From IMG/VR virus record IMGVR_UViG_3300037506_000184, positions 1 through 64,000 of that record: 64,000 nucleotides of DNA. One strand, written 5' to 3'. Source of the DNA: a virus. The position numbers were made by a program, and so were the translations under genes. Numbering within the stretch: the stretch's first letter is position 1; each line of letters opens with the position of its first letter. Shown here one piece after another: positions 5,018-58,443 of this stretch. The notes under the pieces are model-generated. The model was not told where the DNA came from, did no database searches, and was given only the letters and a program-made list of their open reading frames with translations.

Positions 5018-5022
5018 GATTC

Positions 5023-30482: not shown

Positions 30483-30483
30483 G

Positions 30484-32693: not shown

Positions 32694-32914
32694 TGAGACC
32701 GCACACCTGCCACGCGCGCGGCTGCCCGGTTGCCGTGCCGCCGAAGATGCTCATGTGCCGCCGGCACTGGTTCATGGTGCCGAAGCTGCTCCGGGATCGT
32801 GTCTGGGCGACATACCGGACCGGCCAGGAAGAGGGCAACGCCGACGTCACAAGGGAATACCTCGACGCGGCAGACGCGGCGATCGAAGCGGTGGCGGCGA
32901 AGGAAAAGCGGTGA
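32693..32914 (+). CDS. Small zinc-binding protein, 73 aa
   Basis: TGATG overlap with the upstream stop (MRPHTCHARGCPVAVPPKMLMCRRHW...). Confidence 0.45.
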   Translation: MRPHTCHARGCPVAVPPKMLMCRRHWFMVPKLLRDRVWATYRTGQEEGNADVTREYLDAADAAIEAVAAKEKR

Positions 32915-34817: not shown

Positions 34818-34842
34818 AGGTCGTGGAGCCGGAGAGGAGAGG

Positions 34843-35253: not shown

Positions 35254-36196
35254 CCTTACCGACAAGAAGGACACCAAGCTCGCCACGGCGGCTGAGCTGC
35301 GGGCAGAGTATGATTTCATGCGCAACGAACTGGAAGCGGGGACGGCAGTCGTTAGCTTCGGCTATCTCGATGGATTAGCCTCACGCGCCATCGCCGCTCT
35401 CGCCGCCGCCGAACAGCGCGTCGGCGAGTTGGAGAAGGCACACCGCCGTTTTCCGCTGACGACAGGTGGCAGCGTGCCGTGGCTTCTCGGCGAGGAAGGA
35501 TACCGCACCTACGCTAAGTTCAACGGGAACGACCAGTCCATCGAGCGCATGGCGCAGCGCGGCGGGTTTGCCTTCGAGGAGTTGGCGTGCCTGGTTCAGG
35601 GTCACACGGGCTACGGACAGCCGCAACACCTCGACTGCATCGAAGCCCTCAGGCGGCGCCTGTCGGCTGAAGAAGCCGAGCGTCAACGCGCGGTAGCCGC
35701 CGAGGCGGAAGTGGCGCGGCTGCGCGCGGAGAACCAACAACTCGCAAACGACATCGAGCCGATGCGCCGAGCGATCTACGATGCCGAGGAGGAACTGGAG
35801 GAAGCCGGGCGGCCCGAAGGGGAGTACCTGCAGACCGGGATTGCAGCACTGCGCGGGCAGGTGGCGGCGCTGCGGGAGTTGGTGGAACGCGAAGCCGCAT
35901 GGTGGTGCAAGACTTCCAAAACGAACCGGCTGGCGGGATCGAACATCTTGACGCTGCAGCTCACGGTGAACGGCAGCGCAGCGCATGCTTCCAATCTGCA
36001 AGCCGCTGTCGCTACTGCTCTCGGCACCGCCGCCGCCCACGACGCCCGCATCCGCACCGAGGGACACGCGGCAGGCGTCGCCGAGGAGCGGGCACGAGCG
36101 CTGGACATCGCGCGGGCGCACTTCTCCGACGTGTACTGCGTCGACAAGCTGCGGGCGTTCGAGGAAGAGTTGGCGACGGAGGAGCCGACGACGTGA
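35246..36196 (+). CDS. Coiled-coil protein, 316 aa
   Basis: An in-frame GTG at 35246 overlaps the upstream stop. Contains long heptad-like segments. Confidence 0.45.
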   Translation: MSDLTDKKDTKLATAAELRAEYDFMRNELEAGTAVVSFGYLDGLASRAIAALAAAEQRVGELEKAHRRFPLTTGGSVPWLLGEEGYRTYAKFNGNDQSIERMAQRGGFAFEELACLVQGHTGYGQPQHLDCIEALRRRLSAEEAERQRAVAAEAEVARLRAENQQLANDIEPMRRAIYDAEEELEEAGRPEGEYLQTGIAALRGQVAALRELVEREAAWWCKTSKTNRLAGSNILTLQLTVNGSAAHASNLQAAVATALGTAAAHDARIRTEGHAAGVAEERARALDIARAHFSDVYCVDKLRAFEEELATEEPTT

Positions 36197-43829: not shown

Positions 43830-45374
43830 TTGCCGCGAGTCTACACCAGCAAGCCCATGTGCTACAAGGCGCGCATGGCCACCGCGGCCGAAGCCGAGGC
43901 GCTCACCGAGGACCTCGACGAGCTGGTCAAGCACCTGACGCCCGAGGAGCGCGCCGAGCTGGACGGGCTCATGCTGTCGCTGCCCGTGAGCCTCCGGACG
44001 TTCGTTCGCGGCGCGTGGTCGATCATCGAGCCGGGGACGGAGATCACTTGGGGGTGGCATCTCGACGCCATCTGCGACCACCTGGAAGCGGTCACTCGTG
44101 GTGAAATCCGCGATCTTCTGATCTGCGTCCCGCCTCGATTCTCGAAGTCGACCGTGGCGTCGGTGTGCTGGCCGGCTTGGGCATGGACCATCAACCCTGC
44201 ATGGCGGTTCCTCTGCTCCAGCTACAGCTCAGATCTCTCCATGCTTCACGCCGTGGCATCGCGGCGCGTGATCGAGCATCCCTGGTTTCAGGCGCGATGG
44301 GGCCAGCAGTTTCGCCTCACCACCGACCAGAACGTAAAGATGAACTTCGAGAACGATCGGCGCGGCATGCGCATCTCGACATCGACCGGCGCCACGGTGA
44401 CCGGGCTGGGCGGTGACTTTTTGGCCTGCGATGATCCGCACAACATCATCAAGGTACAGAGCGACGCGATCCGCGAAGCCGACGTCCGCTGGTTCAAGAG
44501 CGCATGGACGACCCGGCGAAACGATCCGAAGAAGAGCGCGCGCGTCGTGATCCTCCAGCGTGCGCACGAAAAGGATGTCGCCGCCGAGTGCATCAGCCAA
44601 GGCTTCGCGCAGCTCGTGCTCGCCAACGAATACGACGGGCGAAAGTGGTCGAGTCCGGTGCTGAACCGCGACACGGGGAAGCCGTGGAAGGATCCGCGAA
44701 CGAAGAAGGGCGAGCTGCTCTGCCCTGCCCGCCTGGACGCGGCGGCAACGAAAGCGCTCAAGACGAAGGAGCTCGGAAGCTACGGATACGCCAGCCAATT
44801 TCAGCAGCAGCCGCAGCCCCCCGGCGGCGGCATCTTCAAGCGGAAGAACTGGCAGTATTACCGGATCGCCCCCGCCGACCTAGAGCTCATCATTCATTCC
44901 TGGGACATGAGCTTCAAGGACCTGGAGACGTCCGACTACGTCGTCGGTCAGGTCTGGGGGAAGCGGCGCGCCGATGCCTTCCTGCTCGATCAGGTGCGCG
45001 AGCAGATGGGAATCACCGCCAGCCTCGCCGCCGTGCGGGCGCTCCGCGCCAAGTGGCCGGCGACGTCGGGAATCTACGTCGAGGACAAGGCCAACGGCCC
45101 GGCGGTGATCGAGCTGCTGAAGCGCGAGATCCCCGGCATCGTCGCCGTCCAGGCCGAGATCTCGAAAGTCGCCCGTGCCCGCGCCGTCGAGCCGTTCCAG
45201 CAGTCGGGCAACGTCTTCCTGCCGTTCGAGGCCCCGTGGCTCGAGGACTATCTCGACGAGCTGGCCAAGTTCCCGCGCGGCCAGAACGACGACCAGGTCG
45301 ACGCGACGACGCAGGCGCTCAGGGTGCTCTTTCTCCGCGAGGCGGCAGTGGAGCAGAAGGCAAACCTTTGGTAG
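43830..45374 (+). CDS. terL: Terminase large subunit
   Basis: Motifs present: FVRGAWSIIEPGTEITWGWHLDAICDHLEAV, LLICVPPRFSKST, and the C-terminal nuclease-domain pattern ending FPRGQNDDQVDATTQAL. The start may instead be the ATG at 43875. Confidence 0.85.
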   Translation: MPRVYTSKPMCYKARMATAAEAEALTEDLDELVKHLTPEERAELDGLMLSLPVSLRTFVRGAWSIIEPGTEITWGWHLDAICDHLEAVTRGEIRDLLICVPPRFSKSTVASVCWPAWAWTINPAWRFLCSSYSSDLSMLHAVASRRVIEHPWFQARWGQQFRLTTDQNVKMNFENDRRGMRISTSTGATVTGLGGDFLACDDPHNIIKVQSDAIREADVRWFKSAWTTRRNDPKKSARVVILQRAHEKDVAAECISQGFAQLVLANEYDGRKWSSPVLNRDTGKPWKDPRTKKGELLCPARLDAAATKALKTKELGSYGYASQFQQQPQPPGGGIFKRKNWQYYRIAPADLELIIHSWDMSFKDLETSDYVVGQVWGKRRADAFLLDQVREQMGITASLAAVRALRAKWPATSGIYVEDKANGPAVIELLKREIPGIVAVQAEISKVARARAVEPFQQSGNVFLPFEAPWLEDYLDELAKFPRGQNDDQVDATTQALRVLFLREAAVEQKANLW

Positions 45375-45546: not shown

Positions 45547-48225
45547 ATGCCGAGGGCTGCGGTGGCGAGGAAGGGGAAGCCGGGGGCGGTTTCTTCCGGT
45601 ACCCGTGCGCTCGCGAGAGCGGGGCAGGCATCAGGAAGAGGGTCGAAGCAGTCGAACGCGGCCCAGGCGGAACGAGTCATCTCGGGACTCTTCCCGGGCT
45701 GGATGCGCGAGCCTCCTGTGCGCGGCACGCTCGACCACCTGAAGGCCTACCTGACCATGCCGGTACTCCGCGCCGCGGTCTACCGGATCGCCTCGGCAGA
45801 GGCGTCGGTGATCTGGCACCTCTACGGGATCCGCGAGCCCGGGCGTGGTGGTCGGTTCATCCGCGACGTCAGGATCCAGCGCTCGAACAGCAAGGTCACA
45901 CGCTCCCACCTGATCGAGCAGGCGCGCGAGCGTTTCGACGTGACCGAGATCGTCGAACACCCGATGCTCGACCTTCTCTACAACGCCAACGACTTCATGA
46001 TCGGCTCCAACCTGCGCATGCTGACCGGGGCACACATCGAGCTCGCCGGCGAGAGCTTCTGGTTCTTGCAGTTCATGCCCGTGCAGATCGGTAGTCGAAC
46101 CTTCGAAGTGCCGACGCAGGCATGGCCGGTGCCGCCCAACTGGGTAAGCGACGTGCCCCGCGCCGGCAAGCCGAAGTTCGAAATCACCCACGATGGAATC
46201 AGCGAGCCGGTCGAAGCGAGCCAGATGATCTGGTTCCGCGACCCGAACCCCGTGAATCCGTACGGCCGCGGCTCCGGTTTCACGATGGCGCTCAGCCGCG
46301 ATCTCGACATCGAGCAATTCGGAGCGGACACGCAGATCCGCCGCTTCTATAACCGCGGCCGCCCGGATCTGTTGATCAGCGGGCCTGGGCTTGGTGGCCC
46401 CGAGAACACGAAGACGCTCGAGCGGAAGATGCGCCGCAAGGTCGGCGGCTTCATGGACGCGTTCAAGGCGTTCTTTCTCGGCGCCGAGGTCGAGGTCCAT
46501 CACCTGTCGGAGAGCCTGGCCGATCTGCAGCTCCTCGAGCTGCGGAAAGACGAGCGGGATGCCGTCCTGCAAACCTTCGGCATCTCGCCCGAGATCCTCG
46601 GAATCCTCTCGAACTCGAACCGGGCGACGATCGCCGAGGCCGAGCGCATCTTTGCCCGTTACGTCCTCGAGCCGCGCCTCGAGGTCATCCGCGAGACGCT
46701 GCAAGAGAGACTCGCTCCGCTCTACGACGATCGCCTGATCGTCGACTACGAGTCACCGGTCCCGCAGGACAAGGAGCACCAGTTGAACGCCATGAAGGCT
46801 GCGCCGTGGACAGCCGATGGCAACGAGTGGCGCAAGGTGCAGGGGCTTCCGCCAGACGACTCCTTGGCCGGGATCCGCATGGTGCCGATCAACCTAACGC
46901 CGGCGCGCTCGCTCGAGCCGGAGCCGCCTGCCGATCCGATGCCGCCGGCATTGCCGGCCCCGAACGATCCGGCCCCGGCAGACGGCGGCGGTGGCCCCGC
47001 CGTCGATGAGGGCAAGGGCGCGAGCCGCGCCGCCAAGGACGAGACCGTTCCCGTGAGCGGTCTCTGGCTCTCGATCAGCGGCATGAACGTCGACGTCTAC
47101 CTCGAGACCGAGGGCGCGTGGCGCTGGCCCATCCACGAGGAGGTCGTCCTCGAGGAGGGCGGTATCGGTCCAGTCTCTCACATCGTCGAGCCGGCCGGCA
47201 TCCTCGGCGCACCGGCGCTGCGCGGCAAGGTCCACCCGCTGAAGACCGGACGCGAGCCTTGGAAGAGCTGCGGCCACGTGGATCTCGGGCTCTGCACCCG
47301 CTGCAAGCTCGAGGTGCTCACGGCGGACGCGCACGAATGGGCAACCAAGCAGGGGGACGCCGAGGACCTACTCGTCCATCGCGTCGTCGATCGCCTCGAG
47401 CCGAGCACGCGTCAGGCGTTCATCCGCGCCATGATGGAAGTCCAGCTCGAGACTGATCTCGAACGGCTCCGCGCCATGCTGATTCAGCAGAACGTCCTCG
47501 GCGCCGAGGAAGTCGTCCCGTGGAAGGCGCTCGAGGCGCGGCTCCGCGACTTCGAGGAGGCGCACATCCGCCCCGGGCACCTGGCCGTGGCCGACGGTGC
47601 GGCCGACAACCTGAACGACCAGCTCGGGATCACGCTGCGCTTCGACCGGACAAACCCGCGCGCAGTGCAATGGGCGAGCAGCAACGCGGCGCGCCTGGTG
47701 ACCGAGGTTGCCGAACAGACGAAGCTCGCCATCCGCGAAACGATCGTCGACTCGTTCCGGAACCAGATCACGGCCGATGAGACGGCACGAAACCTCCGCT
47801 CGATGATCGGCATCCACAGCCGCCAGGCGGCGACGTTACGCAAGTTCCGGCTGAGTCTCGTCGAGCAGGGAATCACCGGCGAGGCGCTCGAAACGCGTGT
47901 CGCGAAAGTCGCTGCCGCGATGCTTCGCAAGCGCGCCACGCTGATCGCCCGCACGGAGCTGATCACGAGCTCCAACATGGGGCAGCAGCTTCTGTGGGAG
48001 CAGGGAATTCAGAAGAATCTGATCGACGACGACAGGGCGCGGAAGATCTGGATCACGACGCCAGACGACAGATTGGATTTTCTGGTCTGTGAACCCATGC
48101 CCACGATGCCCGAGAATCAAGACCTTCACGTCAACGAGGAGTTCACCACGGGCGAGGCCGAGAAGATCCTGCAGCCGACGGCTCACCCGGACTGTCGCTG
48201 CACGACCGGGCTCGTCTTCAAGTGA
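45547..48225 (+). CDS. Portal protein fused to a Mu F / SPP1 gp7-like head-morphogenesis domain
   Basis: The N-terminal ~430 aa are HK97-type portal-like (EHPMLDLLYNANDFM..., GESFWFL). A Pro-rich linker and a Cys-containing insert follow. The C-terminal MuF pattern ends LIARTELITSSN...PTAHPDCRCT. Confidence 0.85.
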   Translation: MPRAAVARKGKPGAVSSGTRALARAGQASGRGSKQSNAAQAERVISGLFPGWMREPPVRGTLDHLKAYLTMPVLRAAVYRIASAEASVIWHLYGIREPGRGGRFIRDVRIQRSNSKVTRSHLIEQARERFDVTEIVEHPMLDLLYNANDFMIGSNLRMLTGAHIELAGESFWFLQFMPVQIGSRTFEVPTQAWPVPPNWVSDVPRAGKPKFEITHDGISEPVEASQMIWFRDPNPVNPYGRGSGFTMALSRDLDIEQFGADTQIRRFYNRGRPDLLISGPGLGGPENTKTLERKMRRKVGGFMDAFKAFFLGAEVEVHHLSESLADLQLLELRKDERDAVLQTFGISPEILGILSNSNRATIAEAERIFARYVLEPRLEVIRETLQERLAPLYDDRLIVDYESPVPQDKEHQLNAMKAAPWTADGNEWRKVQGLPPDDSLAGIRMVPINLTPARSLEPEPPADPMPPALPAPNDPAPADGGGGPAVDEGKGASRAAKDETVPVSGLWLSISGMNVDVYLETEGAWRWPIHEEVVLEEGGIGPVSHIVEPAGILGAPALRGKVHPLKTGREPWKSCGHVDLGLCTRCKLEVLTADAHEWATKQGDAEDLLVHRVVDRLEPSTRQAFIRAMMEVQLETDLERLRAMLIQQNVLGAEEVVPWKALEARLRDFEEAHIRPGHLAVADGAADNLNDQLGITLRFDRTNPRAVQWASSNAARLVTEVAEQTKLAIRETIVDSFRNQITADETARNLRSMIGIHSRQAATLRKFRLSLVEQGITGEALETRVAKVAAAMLRKRATLIARTELITSSNMGQQLLWEQGIQKNLIDDDRARKIWITTPDDRLDFLVCEPMPTMPENQDLHVNEEFTTGEAEKILQPTAHPDCRCTTGLVFK

Positions 48226-48240
48226 GCCCTGGGAGCAGCG

Positions 48241-48284
48241 CCGGAGCGGCCAGGAAGGCTCCACACCAGTCTGGCCGTTTCCGG
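48241..48284. terminator. Imperfect hairpin in the convergent gap after the portal gene
   Basis: CCGGAgcGGCCAG-N17-CTGGCCgttTCCGG. No strong U-run. Confidence 0.3.
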
Positions 48285-48338
48285 CGCGACACTCGCGAGA
48301 GTGCAACCGTAGGACGCCGCCAGGCGCGTGTCGAGCGC

Positions 48339-48686
48339 TCAGGCGGCCTTCTTCTCTTCGGTCGTGGAGGCGTCCGCAGGCGCAGCTTCGCCGCTGGTCC
48401 CGTTGGTCGCGGCCGCGGTCTTCTCCTTGACCGCCTGCAGCGCACCGAGGGCCCCGCGCATGCGCTCGATCCCCATCGCGATCTCGCCGAGTTGGTTGTC
48501 GATCGCGGCGCGCGCCTGAAGGAGACGTTGCTGCTCCGCGCGTGCTCCGTCCAGCTCGGCGCGCCACCTGGTCTCGAGCTCGCCGATCACGTTCGTGACC
48601 GGGGGGGCGGCGACGGCTTCTTCCGAATGCTCGCCGTTCTGCGATCGGTCTTGGCCCTGATCCACCATCCTCGGGTCTCCCTTCAT
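48339..48686 (-). CDS. Coiled-coil 115-aa protein, last gene of the two-component block
   Basis: ORF with heptad-like ELETRWRAELDGARAEQQRLLQARAAIDNQL. Confidence 0.45.
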   Translation of the reverse strand: MKGDPRMVDQGQDRSQNGEHSEEAVAAPPVTNVIGELETRWRAELDGARAEQQRLLQARAAIDNQLGEIAMGIERMRGALGALQAVKEKTAAATNGTSGEAAPADASTTEEKKAA

Positions 48687-48750
48687 CCCAAGATCTGGAC
48701 TCGTAATTGACTTATCACATCAGTCCGCCAGAAGCCCGGCCACGGCGTGA

Positions 48751-49305
48751 TCAGACGGGAGGCGCAACGAGCGCACCCACCTTCGCAGCGATCCCGGCCA
48801 CGTCGAACGGCTTGGAGATCACCTCGACAGCGCCGCAACCGATCGCATCCCGTACGTTTTGGGGGTCCGCATGCCCGGTCAGCACGAGTACGCGAACACC
48901 GCGGCGCGTCAGCTCGCGGACCAGCGGCAGACCGTCGAGGCCGGCTCCGATGCGTAGATCGACGATCGCGACGTTGATGACGATGTTTCGCGCGAACCAC
49001 CTGGCCCGCTCCACCGTCTCGGCGGCGAGGTAGCTGCACGAGCTGCCCCAATAGTGCTCGGCGACCTGACGCAGCGACTCGCGCACGCCGAATTCATCGT
49101 CGACGATCAGCAAGGTAAATCGACGGCGGGTCAGCGTTGCTGTCGAATCGTGGCCGTTGCCGCGATCGTGACCGTTGGCGCCTGATTGACGCCCGACTTC
49201 CCCCCCTGCTACTGCCCCGCCAGCCATCGCCAGACCTCCGTTGTCTGGTGTGGTCAGGGTGGCCGTCGCGGGCTGTACTCCGCGGCGGCTGCCCGTCCGC
49301 CTCAC
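48751..49305 (-). CDS. Stand-alone response-regulator receiver protein
   Basis: LLIVDDEFGVRESL, the phospho-acceptor VAIVDLRI, VLVLTGHAD and VISKPFD. An alternative start lies at 49227. Confidence 0.75.
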   Translation of the reverse strand: MRRTGSRRGVQPATATLTTPDNGGLAMAGGAVAGGEVGRQSGANGHDRGNGHDSTATLTRRRFTLLIVDDEFGVRESLRQVAEHYWGSSCSYLAAETVERARWFARNIVINVAIVDLRIGAGLDGLPLVRELTRRGVRVLVLTGHADPQNVRDAIGCGAVEVISKPFDVAGIAAKVGALVAPPV

Positions 49306-49352
49306 ATCTCGTTATGGTGGCTACCACGCTACTGTGTGAGTATCAACCGGAA

Positions 49353-50483
49353 TCACCCGCCGCCGGCCAGTGTGAACCGGAACGCCGCTCCTCTTCCCGG
49401 CTCCGACTCTGCCCATACCCGGCCGCCGTGCCGATGCACGATGCGGCGCACCGTTGCCAGCCCAACCCCGCTTCCGGCGTACTCGTTGCCGTGCAGCCGG
49501 ACGAACGGCGAGAACAGCTTGCCGGCGGTCGACGGGTCGAATCCAATGCCGTTGTCGGCGACGAAGAACGCGCCGTCAGCCGTCCCGATCTCGATGCGCG
49601 CCGCCACCCGATCGCGCGAGTACTTCATCGCATTGCCGATTAGGTTGGTCATCAGCACGCGCATGAGAGCGCTATCGGCCTGCACGGTCAGCCCATCGGC
49701 CACGGCACACTCCACGTCGCGCTCGATCTCTCGCTCTCGCAGCTCCGCAGCCACGGACCTGGCCAGTGCTGAGAGGTCAACCGGCTCAAGTCGCAGATCC
49801 TGCGTCCCGACCCGCGACAGCACCAGCAAGCCGGAGACGATCTCCTCGCAGCGCGACACCGCGACCCGGATTCGCCCCACGTGCCCCTGCGTCTCGGCGC
49901 TGAGAGTGGCGTCTTCCACGATGAGCCGCGCATAGCCGGCGATCACCCGTAGCGGCGCGCGCAGATCATGGCTCACGGCGTAGGCGAACGCCTCCAGCTC
50001 GGTTGCAATTGCCCGTAGCTGTTCGTTGGCCGCCGCCAACTCTTGCCCGCGCCGGACGATCTCCCGCTCGTGCTCGCCCTGGAGCTCGACGAAGGCGGTC
50101 ACGTCCTCGACCCGGTGCAGCACATACGCGACACGGCCATCGATCCAGACCGGCGAGTTGTGCGGCGACCAATGGCGGGTTTCCCACGTGCCGTCGGGCC
50201 GGCGGATCGCGTAACGCTGCACGGCCATCGTATCCGGCTCACCCGACGCCGCTCGCTCGAACGATTCGCGCACGTTTCGCTCGGCGTGAATGTCGGCGTC
50301 CGATTCGGCCTCGGGGAACACGTCGAACACGCCGCGACCAAGGATGGCGTCGCGCCGTGTCATCGTCGCCGCCAGGTAGGCGTCGGAGGCGGCGACGATG
50401 GTGAACGTCGGCGCGTCGGGTAGAAGGAGCAGAAACAAGCAGGATGTCGAGTTGAAGACGTCCTCGAAGGCGACCTCGACCAT
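49353..50483 (-). CDS. Cytoplasmic PAS-domain sensor histidine kinase
   Basis: H-box is FAYAVSHDLRAPL, N-box is LIGNAMKYS, G1 is DNGIGFD and G2 is GSGVGLATV. The N-terminus is PAS-like and has no TM segment. Confidence 0.85.
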   Translation of the reverse strand: MVEVAFEDVFNSTSCLFLLLLPDAPTFTIVAASDAYLAATMTRRDAILGRGVFDVFPEAESDADIHAERNVRESFERAASGEPDTMAVQRYAIRRPDGTWETRHWSPHNSPVWIDGRVAYVLHRVEDVTAFVELQGEHEREIVRRGQELAAANEQLRAIATELEAFAYAVSHDLRAPLRVIAGYARLIVEDATLSAETQGHVGRIRVAVSRCEEIVSGLLVLSRVGTQDLRLEPVDLSALARSVAAELREREIERDVECAVADGLTVQADSALMRVLMTNLIGNAMKYSRDRVAARIEIGTADGAFFVADNGIGFDPSTAGKLFSPFVRLHGNEYAGSGVGLATVRRIVHRHGGRVWAESEPGRGAAFRFTLAGGG

Positions 50484-50490
50484 CGCCCCC

Positions 50491-50670
50491 CTATTCGAGA
50501 TTCTTCAAGGCCTGCTCCATCTCGGTCAGTACCTTGAGGACCGTCTCCTGCAGCCGGTCGTACCGCTTCATGAGCGGCCGGGCGACGAAGACGTAGACAA
50601 TCGCCATGCCGATCACCAGCGTGAGCACGTGGGAGTTTGGATGCTCGAGGAACGGTAGCACCTTCTCCAT
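50491..50670 (-). CDS. Small single-TM protein, 59 aa
   Basis: TGATG overlap with the receiver gene stop (MEKVLPFLEHPNSHVLTLVIGMAIVYVFVARPL...). Confidence 0.4.
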   Translation of the reverse strand: MEKVLPFLEHPNSHVLTLVIGMAIVYVFVARPLMKRYDRLQETVLKVLTEMEQALKNLE

Positions 50671-51125
50671 CAGCGTCCCATCGCGACGAGCTTCTTGCAC
50701 TCGCGCACGCGGCAGAGGAGCTGGCGCGCGAAGGTTCGCCGCTGGTGCTCGTGCCGGACCTTGACCGCCAGCGCATCGATCAGTTGCGCGAGGCCGGTCT
50801 CGTTTATGTCGCCCTTGTACATCACGAGATCCGCGCCGCGCGACATCAGGTCGTCCGACATCGCCTTGTCGACGTGGCCGGTCAGAACGAGAAGCGCCGC
50901 CGGTCCGATCAGCGGGTAGATCCGGTTGAAGGTCTCCGGGTACTCGCCGTTCAGCACGTGGTTGTCGAGCACGACCGCATCGTAGGCGTTGCAGATGAGA
51001 CGTTCCTCGGCCGCAGCAATGGTATCGACGGCGTCGATGTCCATCGAGCGACGGGCGATGCGTGAGCCGAGCTTCAGGTCGTCGGGGTCGTCCTCGATCC
51101 AGAGGATTCGGAGCCGTTCGCTCAT
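50670..51125 (-). CDS. Stand-alone response-regulator receiver protein
   Basis: LRILWIEDDPDD, AVVLDNHV, LLVLTGH and MYKGD. Its ATG overlaps the stop of the transglycosylase-like gene (ATGA). Confidence 0.7.
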   Translation of the reverse strand: MSERLRILWIEDDPDDLKLGSRIARRSMDIDAVDTIAAAEERLICNAYDAVVLDNHVLNGEYPETFNRIYPLIGPAALLVLTGHVDKAMSDDLMSRGADLVMYKGDINETGLAQLIDALAVKVRHEHQRRTFARQLLCRVRECKKLVAMGR

Positions 51126-51604
51126 GCGAGACTCGCCCATCCTGTCGCCCAGCTCGCCGGCCAATCCTTCTTTCGCGGCAAGCCCGGGTTCCAGCATCGC
51201 AAATAATACCTCCACGCCACCTCGCGCTCGTCCGGCAACGGCAGCGGCGCCGGGTCCGTCCATAGCAGGAGCCGCGCAAATCCGGCGGCAAGCGTGTCGC
51301 AGTATTCGACCGCCTGGTACACGGCCGCCGTCGTCGGCTCGACATCCAGAGCGGCGCAGAGCTGGCGCGCGAGATCGCGTGACGCGGGATGCCCGAGGAC
51401 GCCGGAGATCGCCTGCTTCGGCTTCCCTTCGAACTGCCAGTACGAACGGCCTACGCCATTGCCGAGCTGCCGACGGTGGGCGATGTGGGTCTCCTGGAAG
51501 GCGCACGCGACGAGCAGCGCCCGCGCCGCCCGCGAATCCATGCGCGGCGGCAGGAGCGACAGCGCCGGCGTGATGGCGGAGCGTATGAGGACGGCAGGGA
51601 TCAC
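51122..51604 (-). CDS. Putative lytic transglycosylase-like endolysin
   Basis: ACAFQETHIAHRRQLGNGVGRSYWQFE resembles the E...G.xxxWQFE pattern of a phage transglycosylase-like family as I remember it. It lies directly after a holin-like gene. I prefer the GTG at 51604. Confidence 0.45.
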   Translation of the reverse strand: MIPAVLIRSAITPALSLLPPRMDSRAARALLVACAFQETHIAHRRQLGNGVGRSYWQFEGKPKQAISGVLGHPASRDLARQLCAALDVEPTTAAVYQAVEYCDTLAAGFARLLLWTDPAPLPLPDEREVAWRYYLRCWNPGLPRKKDWPASWATGWASLA

Positions 51605-51611
51605 GCCCCAG

Positions 51612-52112
51612 CTACCCCTGCGGCGCGGCCGGCGGCGCCGTCGCTGCCGCCTCCAGCTTGCTGATTGCCGCCCCGACGTCGGCGCCCTTCTGGTAGGCCA
51701 AGACGACCTTCTTCGCATGCTCGGCGACGACAGCGGTCGGCAATGCCTCACCCGGCGCCGCGCTTCTTTCGCCGAGCAGGAAGTGCAGCGACGTCGGCAA
51801 GTACGTCTTGCCGAGCTTGAACATCACCCCGGGCACGCACCCGGCGAGCAGAACCTTCGTCAGTAGCTGGTCGCCGCGGAAGTTGGGCGTGCTCAGCTCC
51901 GTCAAGAGCCCGACGATGAAACCGAGCCCGAGCACGAAGAAGATGTAGTTGTCCGGGTCCTCGAAGGGGCCCTGATACCAGCGCGGCGGGGCACCCGGCT
52001 TACTGATCATGACCGGCTTCAGCAGGCTCGTCAGGACGAACGTGAGCAGGATCATCGGCATGTTGGCGAGCGCCAGCAGGGCGCTCACGGCGTCGGTGAA
52101 GATCTTGTCCAT
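51612..52112 (-). CDS. Holin-like protein with three TM helices
   Basis: Three hydrophobic helices and a charged C-terminal tail, positioned upstream of the lysin-like gene. No family motif recognised. Confidence 0.45.
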   Translation of the reverse strand: MDKIFTDAVSALLALANMPMILLTFVLTSLLKPVMISKPGAPPRWYQGPFEDPDNYIFFVLGLGFIVGLLTELSTPNFRGDQLLTKVLLAGCVPGVMFKLGKTYLPTSLHFLLGERSAAPGEALPTAVVAEHAKKVVLAYQKGADVGAAISKLEAAATAPPAAPQG

Positions 52113-52133
52113 CGCTATCTCTCCTCCCCTCCC

Positions 52134-52508
52134 TCAAAGCTTCGTATCGCGCACGATCACCTGCCCGTCGCACGAGAACTTGTGACCGTTCACGTCCGTG
52201 GCGTTCACGTGGATCTGGTAGCGCGCCTTGTTGGTCCTGCCCGCCGCCTCGAAGATCCAGCAGAACTTCTTCGGGTCGCCCGCGCAGATCGCTGCATTCG
52301 AGACGAGCGAATCCTTGCCGGCGTCGACACCTTCGCGGACGTCGACAGCGATCGTCGCGGTCGCGATGTTCGCCGCACCGCGCGGCGCAAAATCGCAATC
52401 CCAGAGCCAACGCTCGTCTCGCTGGATGACGAGGGTTCCGTTGTCGGCGTGTACGACCGCGGGCGCGAGTAGCGCGGCAAGGATGATCCCGCAAAGTGCA
52501 TTTCTCAT
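52134..52508 (-). CDS. Secreted 124-aa protein
   Basis: ATG at 52508 with a GGGAGG RBS and an ATGA overlap. Signal peptide [21 protein letters not shown]. Confidence 0.5.
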
Positions 52509-53317
52509 GGTGAAGCCTCCCATGGCGCCCCCTTGGCTGGCGCCTCCCATCGGTCTGGCACCGCGTCCGATTCCCAACCGGAAGGCCGCGCCTCTGCCTC
52601 CCATGATCCTCGAGGCAGGATGGGCGTGCTCGATGGCGTTGCCGTTGCCGTGTTCGTCGCCCCCGGCAACGGCGTGCTCGTAGCCGTCGCGGTAGGCGTC
52701 CGGGTAGCCGTCGGCGTCGCCGTTCGGGTCTCCGTCGCCGTCGGCGTCCTCGTTGGAGTCAAGGTGTCGGTCGGTGTGCGCGTCGGCGTCGAGCTCGGCG
52801 TCGGCGTCGACGTCGGGGTCTCCGTAGGTGTGCGCGTTGCCGTCGGAGTCCGTGTCGGCGTGTCCGTCTCCGTCGGCGTCACGGTCGGTGTCGACGTCCT
52901 GGTCGGCGTGTCGGTGGCCGTGGGCGTGCGCGTCGGGGTTGTCGTGGGTGTGTCGGTCGGTGTGTCCGTTCTCGTAGGCGTGGGCGTCGATGTCCTGGTC
53001 GGCGTGCTCGTCGCGGTCGGGGTCGACGTCGGCGTCACGGTGTGGGTCGGTGTCGCCGTAGGCGTGCTGGTCCTCGTCGGCGTGACAGTAGGCGTATCCG
53101 TCTCCGTCGCGGTCGGCTGCGTGCCCGTCGGTGTGGATGTTGGCGAAGCAGTCGGCGTGACCGTGCCCTGATCGCGCAGCAGCAGCGAGACCGCCCCGGC
53201 AGGAGCGGGGGAGAGTAGGACAAGGATGAGGATCAGCCACACGCGCGCTCCGTCAGATCTGGCAATACTTCTGAGCCCCACCGCCCGGCCAATCCTTGCA
53301 GGTCGTGCCCGTGGCAC
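52505..53317 (-). CDS. Secreted Thr/Pro-repeat protein (about 170 residues of TPT repeats) with a Trp-rich tail
   Basis: The frame gives (V)[16 protein letters not shown] followed by TPTxTPT repeats, the same style as 3783-4409. The start is either the ATG at 53317 or the GTG at 53242. Confidence 0.55.
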
Positions 53318-56291
53318 CGGCCGACGTGCAGCTCGCGTCGTTCGTGCACGGGATCAGGATCGGCCGGCAGTCGATCGCTGGGTCATGCTCTGCGCGAAGA
53401 CAAGTTGCGAACATATCGGCGAGCGTCGGCTGCCCCTCGCTGCTCGACAGGTGGATGCCCAGAAAGTCGCTCGCTGGATAGTAGTCGGCGTCGCCCGTCG
53501 GGCTGCGCTCCTGAAACCACTTCTCTTGATCCGCCCAAGCGAGCCCCATCTCGATCGCAAGCTCCCGCTCCCAGGCGCCGAACGTTCTGAACTCGTTGTA
53601 CTGACAGGACCAGCCGGCGCCGAAGTCCTCGTGCGGCGCGTAGGTCGGAGAGATCACCACCCGGACATCTTTTCCGCCCGTGCGCGCGTCCCAGGTCTGC
53701 ACCATCGTGCGAAAGACGTTGCGTACGTAGCTCTGAGACGTCCGCTGCAGACAGATGCCACCCGGGCAGCCCGGCGAGGCGTAGTAGTCCAGCACCTCGC
53801 ACCAGCCGGAGGTCGATCCCTCATTGTCGCACGGACCCGCCGACGACGACGCGATACACGAACCGCCGCCGCTCGTGCAGCTCTCGCCGCACGGCAGGCT
53901 CTTGTTGTTCGAGCAGTAGCTGCAGTCGGTCGCAGACCCACACGCCGTGCCCGCGTTGAAGCCCTTGGTGGCGAACTTGTCGCCGTCGACGCAGAGCGCG
54001 GCGGTCGGAGCTTCCTGCCGGAGCCAGTTGGTTCCATCCGGCAGGTTACATGCTCCGTCGTTGTTCGGACCGCCGCAGGTGCCGCTACACTCCGAGTCGA
54101 TCGCGCAAGGCTTGATGCACTGCCCGAGTCGGCACTTCTCGCCGCCCGAACAGTTGGCGTCGATCGTACACGCCGCGAGGCTCGACTCCGAGCACCACGG
54201 CTGGTAGCAGCGGCCAGCGCGCGGGAACTCCTCCACCCAATCGTTCGCCGCGCAGTCGGCGAAGAGGACGTCGCAGTCCTGGTTGACCGAGCCCTTGTAA
54301 GCCTTGCGGTAGCTCGATGTCCCGTCGGCAATTGCGGTCGTCTGCGCGGCGAAGTCTGCGCACTTTCTTCCGCCCGCGGCCTGCCCGATGATGTCGTCGA
54401 CAGCGATGTCCGCCAGGCGCTCGACGAGCCGCGTGCCGATGTCGTCGCCGTTCCACCGCGAGTCGTTCATGAAGCAGACGGTTCGCCTGCCGTTCCCGTC
54501 GACGTCGGGGAAGGTGACGGCTTTCACGACGCTCGGCAACGTGTAGGTGACGGCAACGAAACCGCTCGTGAAAGCGACCTTGCCGGAGTTGCCGCTGTCT
54601 CCGGTCTGCTTCACCCCCCAATCCATTGTGCCGAAGTTGGAGGTCGTCCAACTGCCGCCGCCTGGTGCAACGTCGAAGATTGCCGTGGGCAGTCCGGCAT
54701 AGTCGTCTTCGGCGGTGTTGTTCACGTTGAAGCTGATCGACTGCGCGCTGCCACCGTCCGCGATCCCATACGAGACTGTTTTGTTCGCGTCCGTCGTGCT
54801 GTTCTCTCGGTACGCTGCCGAGACCGCGACCCAGGCATCACTTTCGAGCGTACCGGCGACCGGCGAGGGCGACGGCCACGGGCTGTGCGTGACGCGCTCC
54901 TCTTCGTTCAGCGCGCAGACGAGGCGTGTCGTTTGGCCGTCGGCTCGGCCGACTCCACCACTCGTGTCGTCGACGCAGGCGCCGTGATCGGTGCAGCCCG
55001 TTGCCTCGCAGGAGTTGATGCCGGCTGCCGCCACCAAATCGCTCACAAGCCAGCGTCGATCGAGGGCCTTTTGCAAGTCCCCCGGCGTCGCGTTCAAATC
55101 GTAGTGCTCGATGTTGTCGAAGCGGATGAACATATCCTGCGCGGCCTTCGACGAGTCGGCTACGCCCCAACGCGAGCGCGCGACGTTTGCGATCACACTC
55201 GACGGGTTCGTGCACGTGCCGCCTCCGTCGCAGTCTCCGTTGATGCTGCATGCGGTGCCGGCCTCGGTGCCCCCCGTGCACGATCCCTGGGGCCGCTGCC
55301 CGCCGCCGATCTCGACCGCGCCCTTGTTCGGGAGACTCGTCGGGTTGTCGGCGTACAGGGTACACTGTACGTTGTATCCACCGAGGCCGAGGAAGTTGCG
55401 CGTCTCGACACAGACCTTGCGCCGCTGGCCGATGGTGAGGGTCAACTTCGAGTAGGTCGCCTTGCTGCACTTCGGTACGCCGCCGACCTCGGCGGGACAC
55501 TGCCCCCCTGAGGGCGCGCAGGAGTCGTCATTACCAGCGCACTTCGTGCAATGCGTTCCGTCAGTGAACGACTCCTCACACTCGAATTGGTCCTCGTCGT
55601 TGAAGTGAACCCGGAGAGTCCGTCGGGTGAAGTGCTGTGGCCCCCCACCGAACGCCGCCGGTGGGCAGTAGGTGGCGTTGTTGTCGCAGCCCACCGTAAT
55701 CACGCACTGGCGCACGCCGCCGCTCGACTCGGTGATGATGATCGGCACCTCGCCGAGTCCCATCCCGCACGCGCCGCCAGCACAATCTGCATTGCTCGCG
55801 CACGGCACGGTGGTGTTGTTGGTGCAGCGGCCGAGAAGCGTGACGTCGGCGCAGTCGAGAGAGCGCGGCGTTGCCGTGAAGTTGACGGGCATCGTCGCGC
55901 TTCGCCCCTGCTCAACGGCCATGTCGGCCTGGAAGTGGGACCACGGATTCGTGTCGTTTACGATCTCGAACGGCAGCTCGCAATTCTCAGTGCCGGCGCA
56001 GTCGTCATCCTCGTCGCAGGTGGTTCCCGAGAGCGCGACGCAGTAGCCGCGATTGAGATTGCAGGTCTGGCCGCCGCCGCAATCCCCGTCGACGACGCAA
56101 GGGCGGGCGCAGAAGCCAGCGCTGATCGCTCCGAGTGTCGGAATCTCCAGCTCACCGTCGACGATGATGCCGGACGTCGCGCCGAGTGGAGCGGTCGCAC
56201 CGAGCTCGAAGGGGATGACCACCGTAGGCTTCGCCCAGGCGGGGACCGCAACGAGCGCAATCGCGATCGTCAGGGCAGAAGTCCGTCGCAT
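53253..56291 (-). CDS. 1012-aa secreted cysteine-rich protein
   Basis: Signal peptide [20 protein letters not shown]. Repeated D(G/D/A)DC..G..C knots occur ([49 protein letters not shown]). The C-terminal region has MNDS and D..GIH, faintly SGNH-hydrolase-like. Confidence 0.7.
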
Positions 56292-56785
56292 GCGATCCCC
56301 GGGCTTGTCGGCCCGTCGCTCATACTCTCGGGCGCGTCTGGCGCGCCGCCGTAGATCCAGTGCCGAGGGTTGCTCGGGTCACGGGTCCAGAGCACCGACC
56401 AGTGCTGCGGCACCTCGAACAGGCGCTCGTCGGGTCCGAGGGTCCGGCCTGTGATCGGGTCGCGGTAGCCGGTCGTGTGCATGACGCACGGCAGCGTGTA
56501 CCGCACGTCGAATCCTTTCGGCGCCGCCTTCGGATCGCTCGCGGTCACGATCTCGCACGAGGTGTTGTCGGCCGCGACGGTCACCGTCCCGTGGTGCTGG
56601 ATGCCGTGGATGGTCGGAGAGACCGAGCAGGCGATCTTGGCCAGCGAAGCGCGACGTTCTGCTTTCTCGGCGCGGGCACGAAGAGTCCGTTTCGCGCGAG
56701 GCTCCGAGCGGCGCTCCAAACGCTCGACCGCATGGGTCGCCATCGGCAGGAGCGCGATCAGTAGGACGAGCAGTTTCCGTGACAC
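56270..56785 (-). CDS. Secreted 171-aa protein
   Basis: GTG at 56785 with a GGAGGAA RBS. Signal peptide VSRKLLVLLIALLPMATHA. Confidence 0.5.
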   Translation of the reverse strand: MSRKLLVLLIALLPMATHAVERLERRSEPRAKRTLRARAEKAERRASLAKIACSVSPTIHGIQHHGTVTVAADNTSCEIVTASDPKAAPKGFDVRYTLPCVMHTTGYRDPITGRTLGPDERLFEVPQHWSVLWTRDPSNPRHWIYGGAPDAPESMSDGPTSPGIACDGLLP

Positions 56786-58443
56786 GCGTTTCCTCCGGTC
56801 AGGCTGTAGGTGATCACCATTCCGGCACCGCCGGCGCCGCCGGTGCCGCACGTCGAGACAGCGCTGCCGCCCGTGCCTCCGGAGCACGTCGTGGTCACCG
56901 AGTTCCAGGTGACGGCAGACGCGATGATGAGGGCGTTGCCGCTTCCACCGCCGCCCGCCGATCCAGACGTCGAGCCGTTGCCAGCAGCATTGCCTGATAG
57001 GTCAATCGTCGCGCCGTCGAAGGTGGCCGTGCCCATACAAGCCACGACCAAGCCCCCACCACCGAAGCCGCCAGCACCAACCGTCCCGGAGGCGCCTGAC
57101 GGGCAACCACCTCCACCACCTCCGGTGCTTCCGAGTGCCGGCCGCTCGAACCAGAGGGTGTCCGCACCCGTGCCGGCGCCGCTCACTGGCGCAGCACCTC
57201 CACCAGAGCCGCCAAGAAATGGTAAAGCCTGTCCTGGAGCCCAACTGAACCAGGCTGTACGATTGCCAGCACCACCGTTCACGGAAGAAGTCGTACCCGC
57301 CGCGCCACCACCGAGCATCGTTGAGTGGCCCGGCTTCCCTGCCTGGTTGGCTGCGAGAGTGCCCCCAGCCACCGAGCACCCACCCAAGCCCTTGAGGTTG
57401 ATCTTCCCGTTTACCGTACAGTCGCCTCGAACGTAGAGCTGGAGCTGCGACGCCGCTGCGTTCAGGCAACCGGCGGTCACCGTGCGATCGATGGTGACGG
57501 TCCAGTCCGACGCAATGCTGAGCGACGAGAACTGCTTCAGGAAGCTCGGGGTGTTGTAGGTGTTGATCGAGTTGAACGCGCCGATGTGGGAGTTGGGAGT
57601 GAGCTTGCAGGTGCAGGAGTAGGAGTTGTCCGGGGTGTTGGTTCCGCTACAGCCCCCGGTGCAGGCCGCAGGGCAGTTGCCGGACCCTGGGGTCGTCCCG
57701 CAGCTTGCCCCCGAGCTTACGTCGGGCAGCGTGAACGCACCATCGGCACCGCTCCCCCAGAAAGTCGGGTCTGGGCCGGTTTCCTTGTAGGTGTCGGGAA
57801 TATGGGTGTTGGTGTGCACGGCGCTGATTGCGGCGTTCTCGTCCTCGTACATGGTCTCGTCGATCGTGCAGGTCTTGCCGACCGAGTTCCCGCAGAGGGT
57901 GAAGGTGGAACCGGCAGAAACGTCGCACTCGCCAGCGGAGCAGGTGACGTCGAACTCCAGGCCGAAGTCGATGAGCGATCCAACGCCTTGCAAGCTGTTG
58001 TTCCGCTTGACGCTCATCGGCGCGATCCGCTTCCACTCGCTCGCGATGTTGCAGGTGCCGTCGCCCGTCAGGCAGAGCCAACACTTCCAGTCATCCTCGT
58101 CGCAACAGACTTCGCGGGGCTTGCCGTCGGTAATGGTCGTGCAATCCGTGTCGTGGCTGCGCCAGCCGAGGATGTTCGAGCCGCTTGGCCGCGTTGTGTC
58201 GGTGCCTGAGTCGCCGCCGTCGATCGTCTTGTTGGTGAGCGTCTGCGCGCTGCTGAGATCCGCCGCGACGAAGCACGCGGTCCCCGTGTCGGTCCCGTTG
58301 TTCTTGACGCTCTCGTTCGCGGCGCAGTTGGGAACCGCAATTGCACCGTTGGCGCAGGTCGCGAAATCGCCCGAGCAGGTGAGCGCGTGCGCCGTCGACG
58401 CCGAGAGGAGCGCCAGCAGGGCGAGTGAGAACCAGCGCTTCAT
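56758..58443 (-). CDS. Tail-fibre-like protein with a signal peptide, a Cys-rich middle and a Gly-rich C-terminus
   Basis: Signal peptide MKRWFSLALLALLSASTAHA. SAQTLTNKTI is a motif common in phage fibres. The C-terminus has GGGGGCPSGASGTVGAGGFGGGG and GGGGSGNALII tracts. Confidence 0.65.
   Translation of the reverse strand: MKRWFSLALLALLSASTAHALTCSGDFATCANGAIAVPNCAANESVKNNGTDTGTACFVAADLSSAQTLTNKTIDGGDSGTDTTRPSGSNILGWRSHDTDCTTITDGKPREVCCDEDDWKCWLCLTGDGTCNIASEWKRIAPMSVKRNNSLQGVGSLIDFGLEFDVTCSAGECDVSAGSTFTLCGNSVGKTCTIDETMYEDENAAISAVHTNTHIPDTYKETGPDPTFWGSGADGAFTLPDVSSGASCGTTPGSGNCPAACTGGCSGTNTPDNSYSCTCKLTPNSHIGAFNSINTYNTPSFLKQFSSLSIASDWTVTIDRTVTAGCLNAAASQLQLYVRGDCTVNGKINLKGLGGCSVAGGTLAANQAGKPGHSTMLGGGAAGTTSSVNGGAGNRTAWFSWAPGQALPFLGGSGGGAAPVSGAGTGADTLWFERPALGSTGGGGGGCPSGASGTVGAGGFGGGGLVVACMGTATFDGATIDLSGNAAGNGSTSGSAGGGGSGNALIIASAVTWNSVTTTCSGGTGGSAVSTCGTGGAGGAGMVITYSLTGGNACHGNCSSY

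Follow-up and report, generated by a model that had tools for sequence, protein, structure and literature searches.

On its minus strand, the window analysed here (a whole stretch of 64,000 nucleotides of viral DNA) carries a complete two-component signalling set (one kinase and two stand-alone receivers) joined by overlapping codons to the lysis-type genes of a temperate phage (integrase at 16234-17529, phrog_1 at 2e-42). Judged from sequence comparisons, the conserved core of this set comprises a stand-alone receiver of the Rec1 type with a long helix at its C-terminus, a small bitopic membrane protein that has a cytoplasmic helix, a soluble histidine kinase with a PAS domain (HK), a structured leader and a stand-alone receiver of the Rec2 type. 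We tentatively interpret it as a self-contained signalling cassette, devoid of output domain, that is maintained by the phage and tied to lysis timing; a role as host-directed cargo is nearly as likely as such a lysis-linked post-translational control. If our interpretation is true, phosphorylation signalling may be the means by which the phage chooses when its host bursts.

The seven open reading frames (ORFs) reported by a first-pass annotation are all present on the minus strand, at the coordinates and with the ATGA and TGATG overlaps that it gave, and the gene order was found again. The first gene of the lysis-type cluster encodes a holin-like protein with three transmembrane (TM) segments (51612-52112, 166 aa) and starts with an ATG, with GGGAGGGGAGGAG before it as SD. 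The lysin-like gene, in endolysin position (51122-51604, 160 aa), begins 7 nt past the holin-like stop with a GTG, a start that is supported by the conservation of the N-terminus among homologues. The ATG of Rec1 (50670-51125, 151 aa), a stand-alone receiver followed by a C-terminal helix of ~45 aa, overlaps the lysin-like TGA by 4 nt (ATGA). One public gene caller places the Rec1 start 72 nt further upstream (175 aa), and the coupling between Rec1 and the lysin-like gene is unaffected by this choice. The start of the gene encoding a 59-aa bitopic membrane protein (TM59; 50491-50670) shares 1 nt with the Rec1 stop (TGATG), and a spacer of 7 nt separates this gene from the start of HK (49353-50483, 376 aa). 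Then come a leader of 125 nt (49228-49352), Rec2 (48751-49227, 158 aa), which is a stand-alone receiver with a Gly/Asn/His-rich N-terminal tail, and, after a gap of 64 nt, an ORF encoding an acidic coiled-coil protein (48339-48686, 115 aa).

The composition of the cassette (GC 0.58-0.69, GC3 0.75-0.88, CAI 0.56-0.72) lies within the range of the phage genes, and the high GC3 of the seven ORFs (0.75-0.92, with 0.84 for the coiled-coil ORF), like that of the other genes in the window, is evidence of coding. No sigma-70-like promoter or intrinsic terminator was detected on the minus strand between 47800 and 53400 in a scan limited to consensus sites; no such consensus thus separates the lysis genes from the signalling genes. 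The classic signature of a moron is absent, as the block has neither a promoter or terminator of its own nor a deviant composition, and is present in a syntenic relative.

Only one syntenic relative was found, represented by contigs L189-L194 from four sequencing runs, and the block occupies the same junction in it; it is therefore conserved and not a recent insertion. The homologous neighbours in this relative include a 1017-aa protein (54.5% identity), the 3-TM protein (70%) and replication genes (59-78%). The order there is holin-type genes, REC (GTGA overlap), bitopic membrane protein, PAS-HK (GTGA overlap), a leader of ~100 nt and REC. The gene just upstream of Rec1 is the endolysin here versus a Holin_LLH-like gene in L189, with a codon overlap in both cases; judging from these sequences, it is not with the endolysin itself that the cassette is conserved. 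A third phage (L023) retains the membrane protein (14-nt overlap), HK, the leader and REC, and in L023 and L192 the module adjoins a convergent early/replication-modification operon. Only two or three phage lineages were available for comparison; the catalytic residues (kinase motifs, D/T/K of the receivers) are intact in all three phages, and gene order and coupling persist at 26-70% protein identity. In addition, neither an HK nor a REC adjoins the endolysin gene in about 19 phages that share this endolysin family, which indicates that the cassette is dispensable for that lysis system.

The kinase exceeds the Pfam cut-offs for its three domains (PAS_4, 28.5 bits; HisKA, 42.2 bits for a cut-off of 26.9; HATPase_c, 76.8 bits) and has no TM segment. 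Its H-box (S171-H172-D173-L-R-A-P-L) is invariant across 11 members of the family, as are the N (N280/N284), G1 (D310-x-G312-x-G314), F (F324/F327) and G2 (G337-x-G339-x-G341) motifs in the family alignment. The orthologue in L023 is 69% identical, while that in L189 is 71% identical in the PAS domain and 49% in the kinase core. With a dN/dS of 0.28, HK is under purifying selection. The phage kinases form a clade of their own (69% identity to each other) with a shortened PAS-DHp linker. After the phospho-histidine, helix 1 of the DHp domain reads GYARLI or GYAALL in the phage kinases versus mostly GFSxAL in cellular homologues, a difference that suggests insulation of the kinase toward the phage's own receivers. 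The cellular homologues (44-51% identity over the full length, many phyla) are ordinary orphan kinases, belong to kinase + single-receiver pairs or lie in multi-kinase clusters. The orphans and pairs are compatible with a simple capture, an observation that counts against the lysis-timing reading. Complete two-component sets had been described as unusual in tailed phages, and indeed any HK match was found in only 79 of 50,697 phage records, many of which are contaminant contigs; when IMG/VR was scanned for two motifs that mark the kinase family, only three distant kinases were recovered.

Both receivers carry the residues expected for phosphotransfer. Rec2 matches Response_reg clearly (PF00072, 56.9 bits for a cut-off of 30.2) and carries D43, D44, D90, T117 and K139, D90 being the predicted acceptor. 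It has orthologues downstream of HK in L023 (36%) and L189 (40%), and its dN/dS of 0.63 denotes fast evolution. Rec1 is more divergent: its score against the same Pfam family (20.3 bits, E 6e-4) is below the cut-off, its AlphaFold2 (AF2) model is too poor to be used (pLDDT 55), and a search of 5.8e9 proteins returned only Rec1 itself. However, phmmer matched Rec1 to nine PDB entries, each of them a REC domain or response regulator, with the REC domain and linker helix of a REC-GGDEF protein as the best match (6zxc, E 2.5e-5, residues 6-138). Moreover, D12, D13, D54, T82 and K104 are kept in alignment with Rec2, D54 being the predicted phospho-acceptor, and the positional orthologue of Rec1 in L189 is a Pfam REC. 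Pfam detected no output domain in either receiver; with the analysis of hydrophobic segments, this agrees with the earlier view that the receivers lack an output domain and the kinase a membrane sensor.

The holin and lysin assignments of the first-pass annotation only partly held. Both proteins fail the curated profiles, while the lysin family occupies the endolysin slot by synteny and may have a distantly lysozyme-like fold. In the holin-like protein, three hydrophobic segments lie at 9-27, 57-75 and 83-101 and are followed by a hydrophilic C-terminal tail of ~60 aa; like holins, it is thus small, spans the membrane at least once, has a hydrophilic C-terminus and is encoded beside a gene in endolysin position. 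It has no match in Pfam, PHROG or NCBIfam and belongs to no described holin family. Neither another cluster among 1.84e9 representatives nor a relative in IMG/VR was found, and its sole known relative is the orthologue with 70% identity at the same position in L189-L194. Its putative role as a holin is suggested by topology and position.

The lysin-like protein has no match to a curated profile (Pfam, NCBIfam), and its earlier label as "transglycosylase-like" is without support from such profiles. It matches phrog_3108 (1e-37), a widespread phage family, and has 105 homologues; Q37, E38, Q46 and E59 are invariant. Matches to SLT were obtained for 5 out of 18 homologues and are weak (best E 0.013). 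The PDB gave no significant sequence match, with the single sequence or with the family profile, and the best Foldseek match of the model in the PDB has an E of 1.5. The AF2 model is all-helical (pLDDT 96.4), with the invariant E38 at the end of helix 25-39. Its weak structural neighbours are mostly lysozymes, SLT/GEWL and tail lysozymes (TM-score 0.3-0.5, probability up to 0.9); this enrichment in lysozyme and lytic-transglycosylase folds may point to a distantly lysozyme-like fold. In the ~19 other phages, the family sits by synteny in the endolysin slot, after holins and before spanins. For instance, Phage_holin_8 and Phage_holin_3_7 lie directly upstream of the lysin homologue in L021, and in L004, L010 and L018 this homologue is followed by a pair resembling an i-spanin and a lipoprotein o-spanin. 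No o-spanin candidate was found within the present block, and the cassette occupies the site of spanin-like or accessory lysis genes in other phages with this endolysin family. Three observations had been named beforehand as speaking against a link with lysis: failure of the holin and lysin calls in profile searches, a promoter and terminator between lysis and signalling genes, and absence of the block from syntenic relatives. None of them was found in full.

The 59-aa protein has one hydrophobic segment (~14-31) and a basic cytoplasmic C-terminal helix, and gave no family match in the correct frame. In L023 and L189, the same slot holds a small bitopic membrane protein, coupled to HK and not homologous to the 59-aa protein; the slot proteins of these phages are mutually non-homologous. 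The leader forms an extended hairpin whose apical loop holds the SD (GGAG) and in which the region of the start codon is paired. It contains blocks conserved in three phages. Around 49205-49263, L023 has the same letter at 27-29 of 30 nt, whereas identity is ~73% over the coding part of HK. Covariation is seen in the apical stem (CCAGAC/GTCTGG versus CGACAC/GTGTCG), and Rfam gave no match for this leader. Finally, the coiled-coil ORF has no family match and no homologue past Rec2 in L023 or L189; from this comparison, it is probably specific to the window and outside the conserved module. The seven-gene unit initially proposed is therefore retained for the kinase and the two receivers joined to lysis-type genes, but not for the coiled-coil gene.

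We propose that, in this temperate phage, the tail-fibre/lysis genes form a transcription unit that has the cassette at its promoter-distal end. Translational coupling to the last lysis-type gene would then cause it to be made along with the holin and the endolysin. The cytoplasmic PAS domain would read an intracellular cue, the kinase would autophosphorylate on H172, and the phosphate would pass to D54 of Rec1 and D90 of Rec2. As neither receiver has a DNA-binding domain, the output would occur by protein-protein contact. The most likely target would be at the membrane, through the bitopic partner, and holin triggering could thereby be delayed or licensed, thus setting the time of lysis. The hairpin of the leader may set the synthesis of Rec2 separately. 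Receivers without output domains fit a fast post-translational decision. We know of no experiment or precedent tying a two-component system to phage lysis timing.

The end of a late operon is a known hot-spot for cargo, and it is quite possible that the set resides there after its capture from a signalling cluster of bacteria, as a cargo that acts on host physiology. In the lysogen or late in infection, it would influence, for example, the stress response, motility, the cell cycle or c-di-GMP networks, through its single-domain receivers or by cross-talk with regulators of the host, and its nearness to the lysis genes would be positional, not functional. The temperate nature of the phage agrees with this, as do the cellular kinase homologues (44-51%), which often lie in clusters of several kinases or just ahead of a stand-alone receiver. 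The cassette is missing from other phages with the same endolysin family, a dCache-GGDEF signalling gene lies two genes downstream of the lysin homologue in prophage locus L021, and a promoter active in lysogens could lie within the conserved leader upstream of Rec2. In phiCDHM1, moreover, the HK AgrC of the agr3 cassette adjoins the endolysin (PMC3901668). However, consensus promoters and terminators are absent from the present block and its composition does not deviate, in contrast to that of the low-GC agr genes of phiCDHM1 (PMC3901668). Although the lysis gene upstream is not the same in the two diverged phages, both retain a codon overlap with it, and GYARLI/GYAALL in place of GFSxAL suggests, by inference, a kinase insulated toward the receivers that the phage itself encodes.

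It is unlikely that the set regulates some other decision of the phage (lysis-lysogeny or induction, superinfection exclusion, late morphogenesis) via a phage or host partner. Phage-encoded sensors that steer development are known (VP882 VqmA, arbitrium), a PAS kinase could report the energy or redox state of the host, and the module adjoins the early/replication-modification operon in L023 and L192; yet it has no DNA-binding output and no candidate partner, and its embedding in a late-type operon implies that it is made too late for an entry decision. It is highly improbable that these genes are decaying hitch-hikers or chance ORFs. The score of Rec1 under the Pfam cut-off and its sole match to itself among 5.8e9 proteins, the holin-like protein without family and the dN/dS of Rec2 (0.63) could be read in this way, but none of the three phages has lost catalytic residues, HK has a dN/dS of 0.28, gene order and coupling persist although the proteins have diverged to 26-70% identity, and GC3 is high in all ORFs.

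Compared with known systems, bacterial soluble PAS_4-HisKA-HATPase_c kinases have the same domain architecture as the phage HK (44-51% identity), and at some cellular loci a single-domain receiver of 143-150 aa lies downstream of the kinase, resembling the HK-Rec2 pair. The cellular copies have a chromosomal or signalling-cluster context, without lysis genes, upstream Rec1, bitopic protein or conserved leader. In Staphylococcus and Bacillus, LytSR/CidR is a two-component system that controls the holin-like CidA/LrgA and is tied to murein hydrolase activity. It is alike in its tie to holin-like proteins, and no sequence relationship with the phage cassette was found here; LytSR is cellular and not viral, LytS being a polytopic membrane kinase and LytR a LytTR DNA-binding regulator of transcription. 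Among phages, small membrane or accessory proteins of lysis cassettes adjust holin firing (lambda S107 antiholin, T4 RI/RIII, P1 LydB, P2 LysA). The slot of the 59-aa protein is like that of these lysis-timing regulators, with which no homology was detected; to our knowledge, none of them uses phosphotransfer. CheY, DivK, Spo0F and SdrG are receivers that act by protein-protein contact or as a phosphate sink. They show no specific relationship with Rec1 and Rec2, which they resemble in lacking output domains, and SdrG is among the weak PDB matches of Rec1. In the Clostridioides difficile phage phiCDHM1, the agrC/B/D genes (agr3 cassette) adjoin the endolysin (PMC3901668); as here, a temperate phage carries a bacterial-type HK and signalling genes beside its endolysin (PMC3901668). 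However, phiCDHM1 has no response regulator, its kinase is a membrane quorum-sensing receptor and its agr genes have a deviant GC (PMC3901668), whereas the present phage has one soluble kinase with a PAS domain and two receivers, in a cassette that has a native composition and overlaps codons with the lysis genes.

Direct reading of the minus strand bore out the gene order and the stop-start overlaps of the first-pass annotation, which had described a two-component module coupled to lysis genes. The block opens with a holin-like ORF (51612-52112), separated by 7 nt from a lysin-like ORF (51122-51604) that starts with GTG and whose stop is overlapped as ATGA by the gene of a stand-alone receiver, Rec1 (50670-51125). 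The stop of Rec1 is in turn overlapped as TGATG by a 59-aa ORF (50491-50670), followed after 7 nt by the gene of a PAS histidine kinase (HK; 49353-50483), after 125 nt by a second receiver gene, Rec2 (48751-49227), and after 64 nt by a coiled-coil ORF (48339-48686), the last gene of the block. All block ORFs are supported as coding by their GC3 (0.75-0.92). The upstream neighbour of the holin-like gene encodes a 129-aa secreted protein, with a stop-to-start distance of only 21 nt, which makes the block the last part of a long run of genes on one strand. In line with the claimed coupling, no sigma-70-type promoter or intrinsic terminator parting the lysis genes from the signalling genes was found on the minus strand from 47800 to 53400, a weak test restricted to consensus sites. 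A lipobox scan of the same region found no o-spanin, its only matches being antisense ORFs within the HK gene.

HK contains PAS_4, HisKA and HATPase_c domains, each scoring above its Pfam cut-off, and has no transmembrane (TM) segment. The family alignment shows no variation at H172 or in the N, G1, F and G2 boxes. Rec2 is a clear receiver (56.9 bits in Pfam), and Rec1 scores 20.3 bits against a Pfam cut-off of 30.2. The PDB sequence matches of Rec1 are all REC domains, the best being 6zxc (a REC-GGDEF protein; E 2.5e-5), in an alignment that spans D54, T82 and K104 and reaches the long alpha-5 linker helix. The two receivers are only distantly akin. A search for Rec1 homologues among 5.8e9 proteins returned the self-match only, and the AF2 model of Rec1, built from a two-sequence alignment, had a pLDDT of 55 and was left out of the fold search. 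Neither receiver carries an output domain. A complete two-component set with a soluble kinase and without output domains, as first proposed, is thus well supported. The 59-aa protein gave no family match, and no protein of the module was matched by PADLOC among known defence systems.

Portal-based searches for relatives gave no result in IMG/VR, metagenome contigs or GTDB genomes, and scans of IMG/VR with the single HK sequence and with the holin-like protein were equally empty. The kinase search gave 7685 matches, two of them phage-borne, and a syntenic relative was reached solely via the third-best kinase match. Cellular homologues of the kinase share at most about 51% identity with it and belong to many phyla; their genes are orphans, have a stand-alone receiver gene directly downstream or lie in multi-kinase clusters. 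Of 80 metagenomic loci, none had phage genes. No donor lineage was singled out, the best genome matches (44-48%) being scattered over Verrucomicrobiota, Acidobacteriota, Planctomycetota and Proteobacteria. Many of the HK-matching “phage” records are contaminant contigs. The HK of Burkholderia phage vB_E427 was rejected as a comparable case, as its neighbours are RND efflux genes, seemingly host DNA. That such a set is rare for phages, as already put forward in the annotation, is well supported.

The syntenic relative (contigs L189-L194, from four sequencing runs) carries homologues of window 56761-58137 (54%) and 56282-56743 (40%) and of the window's 1012-aa Cys-rich secreted protein (54.5%), followed by an orthologue of the 3-TM holin-like protein (70% identity), a 60-aa 2-TM protein and a 101-aa protein with a weak Phage_holin_6_1 match. 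The GTG of a 181-aa Pfam receiver then overlaps the previous stop as GTGA; this receiver is 26% identical to Rec1 and has the REC-plus-helix layout in common with it. A 125-aa tail-anchored coiled-coil protein precedes the kinase, which starts at a GTGA overlap, shares 71% identity with HK in the PAS and 49% in the core, and has one extra PAS inserted. Past the kinase come a leader and a receiver 40% identical to Rec2, then convergent replication genes homologous to window 29.4-34.8 kb. No endolysin was recognisable in the 16-27 kb available for this relative. In L189, the region before the receiver (3878-5104) holds three differing small membrane proteins: the 3-TM orthologue, the 60-aa 2-TM protein (PF28077) and a Holin_LLH-like protein.

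In L023, a contig of another phage, the kinase is 69% identical to HK. A gene for a 119-aa coiled-coil protein, which has its TM at the C-terminus, overlaps the kinase start by 14 nt. This protein resembles the 125-aa one (by eye, not scored) and is not similar to membrane proteins from other lysis cassettes; the contig stops just upstream of its gene. Beyond the kinase lie a leader of approximately 100 nt and a receiver 36% identical to Rec2. The order shared across phages thus defines a conserved unit made up of a receiver, a bitopic membrane protein, the PAS kinase, the leader and a second receiver. In both phages whose upstream side is visible, this unit closes the late array, and its first gene shares codon overlap with the holin- or lysis-type gene just before it. 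The syntenic relative carries the same junction, which answers in favour of the module the reading as a recent insertion missing from such relatives; neither the phrog_3108 endolysin nor the terminal coiled-coil ORF belongs to what is conserved. It is well supported that the cassette is a stable resident of a phage lineage and that it is fused, physically and translationally, to a lysis-type cluster.

The GC, GC3 and codon usage of the module are indistinguishable from those of other phage genes. The residues past the phospho-His read GYARLI or GYAALL in the phage kinases versus mostly GFSxAL in cellular homologues, from which we infer that the kinase may be insulated toward the phage's own receivers. 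The leader before Rec2 (window 49205-49352, minus strand; L023 1506-1625; L189 7390-7510) has blocks conserved in all three phages. Over roughly 60 nt around the Rec2 start, the window and L023 are identical at 27-29 of 30 positions, versus about 73% in the kinase coding sequence. Every leader folds as an extended hairpin whose apical loop holds the SD (GGAG) and in which an upstream CCCTG(A/G)CCA element pairs with the region of the start codon; two of six apical pairs covary (CCAGAC/GTCTGG vs. CGACAC/GTGTCG). The leader has no Rfam match, and its apical inverted repeat occurs once in the window. This lead from three sequences points to a separate translational control of Rec2.

The lysin-like protein, labelled transglycosylase-like in the annotation, had no match in Pfam, NCBIfam and PDB sequence searches. 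It matches phrog_3108 (1e-37), a family of unknown function, and has relatives at 18 IMG/VR loci and 105 database homologues (37-59% identity), including prophage copies from Pseudomonas, Azoarcus and Pseudoxanthomonas; two are named “Lysozyme” in UniRef. At the inspected loci, the gene comes after tail-fibre genes and small membrane proteins, and at several it precedes pairs resembling an i-spanin and a lipoprotein o-spanin. In one prophage (L021), Pfam Phage_holin_8 and Phage_holin_3_7 genes directly precede the lysin homologue. The latter is 53% identical to the window protein, and after this lysis cassette and two further genes comes a dCache_1-GGDEF signalling protein (7619-9181), a second instance of signalling beside lysis genes, although it may be host flank. 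Across the family, Q37, E38, Q46 and E59 are invariant and an ARLLLWTDPxPLP motif is strongly conserved. The AF2 model (70-sequence alignment) reached a pLDDT of 96.4. Foldseek found nothing significant in the PDB (best E 1.5), its weak matches being enriched in lysozymes, MltF, phiKZ gp144, goose lysozyme and GH19. In a viral structure library, unnamed phage proteins came on top (TM 0.7-0.8), followed by tail lysozymes and SLT/GEWL domains. Weak Pfam SLT matches were found in 5 of 18 homologues. We conclude that its position marks this protein as an endolysin and that its predicted fold is lysozyme-like, though very divergent; the transglycosylase label is plausible and not established. Phrog_3108 may be an uncharacterised endolysin family, and we flag it as widespread at the endolysin position and without a significantly matching solved structure. 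With three TM segments, a hydrophilic tail, no family match and no other cluster in 1.84e9 representatives, the holin-like protein is a putative holin by topology and position.

The window (66% GC, no tRNA genes) is a temperate phage genome or prophage, because it encodes a large terminase (43830-45374; 41% identity to the TerL of Aeromonas phage 56), a portal-MuF fusion (45547-48225, plus strand; 892-aa single ORF; phrog_2662 and phrog_3517), a tyrosine integrase (16234-17529), RusA, RecT, methyltransferases and one anti-restriction protein. One gene caller gives 840 aa for the portal with its fused MuF-like head-morphogenesis domain. The lysis and signalling block, on the minus strand, is convergent with the portal gene. 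The sole terminator-like hairpin of the region (48405-48420) is on the plus strand and falls within the 3' end of the coiled-coil ORF, 180 nt beyond the portal stop; the portal operon may end there. Two short public contigs match the block stretch at 100% identity. On the minus strand, the 1012-aa product of 53253-56291 is rich in Cys, carries a signal peptide and has neither a Pfam nor a PHROG match; it is probably a tail fibre or depolymerase-type protein. Its 1017-aa counterpart in L189 (54.5% identity) has a weak GDSL/SGNH lipase match. A degenerate 6/12-nt periodic repeat at 52505-53317 yields two long overlapping minus-strand ORFs, one Thr-Pro-rich with a signal-like N-terminus (52505-53317) and one in an Asp/His-rich frame (52134-53240); L189 has only a 42-aa ORF at this position. 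The plus-strand cluster at 26832-37980 combines DNA methyltransferases with a Mom-like protein, a DUF5131/PDC-M41B-like protein (33690-34817) and a HerA-like ATPase (35899-37980), the last of which PADLOC matches to HerA and mad8. The cluster resembles an island of DNA-modification or defence type carried by the phage, and L023 and L192 have parts of it in common with the window.

The module would be co-transcribed with the lysis genes, HK would transfer phosphate to the receivers, and the output of these would be protein-protein contact. We tentatively rank a lysis-linked role first, for four reasons: the coupling survives a change of upstream gene from phage to phage, the kinase invariably comes after a small helix protein anchored in the membrane, the slot filled by the cassette is that of lysis-accessory genes, and the block has no o-spanin candidate. 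In its full form, which we consider rather unlikely, a temperate phage clade that infects GC-rich environmental bacteria would use its own phosphorelay to time host lysis or to veto it: the condition of the infected cell would be sensed by the cytoplasmic PAS kinase, and the two output-less receivers, with the membrane-anchored helper, would hold or release the holin.

A host-directed cargo role comes close behind the lysis-linked one as a possible, slightly less favoured explanation. The end of a late operon is a hot-spot for cargo, as in phiCDHM1, where agr genes adjoin the endolysin (PMC3901668), and the cassette is absent from about 19 phages sharing the same endolysin family. Besides phiCDHM1, phrase searches of the literature on phage-encoded two-component systems gave nothing of relevance. 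Between the window and L023, dN/dS is 0.28 for the kinase and 0.63 for Rec2 (dS about 0.8-1.0), and the phospho-sites are retained in all three phages; that the cassette is a non-functional remnant appears very improbable, and its control of some other phage decision improbable.

In the current view, phage lysis is timed by holin/antiholin biophysics together with a few dedicated small proteins, and the sensing of host state by phages is known mainly through transcription factors. Each ingredient has precedents of its own: two-component proteins, kinases carried by phages, and regulators of lysis. To our knowledge, a complete cassette of one kinase and two receivers that is conserved and codon-coupled to the lysis genes of a phage is undescribed, and no such description was found in the literature searched. 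With a position-conserved, codon-coupled cassette under purifying selection, whether a virus can use phosphotransfer signalling late in infection, and whether this gates lysis, becomes a testable question, addressable with a few point mutants. If the phosphorelay reading is true, the cassette would be the first case of a viral lysis clock under two-component control.
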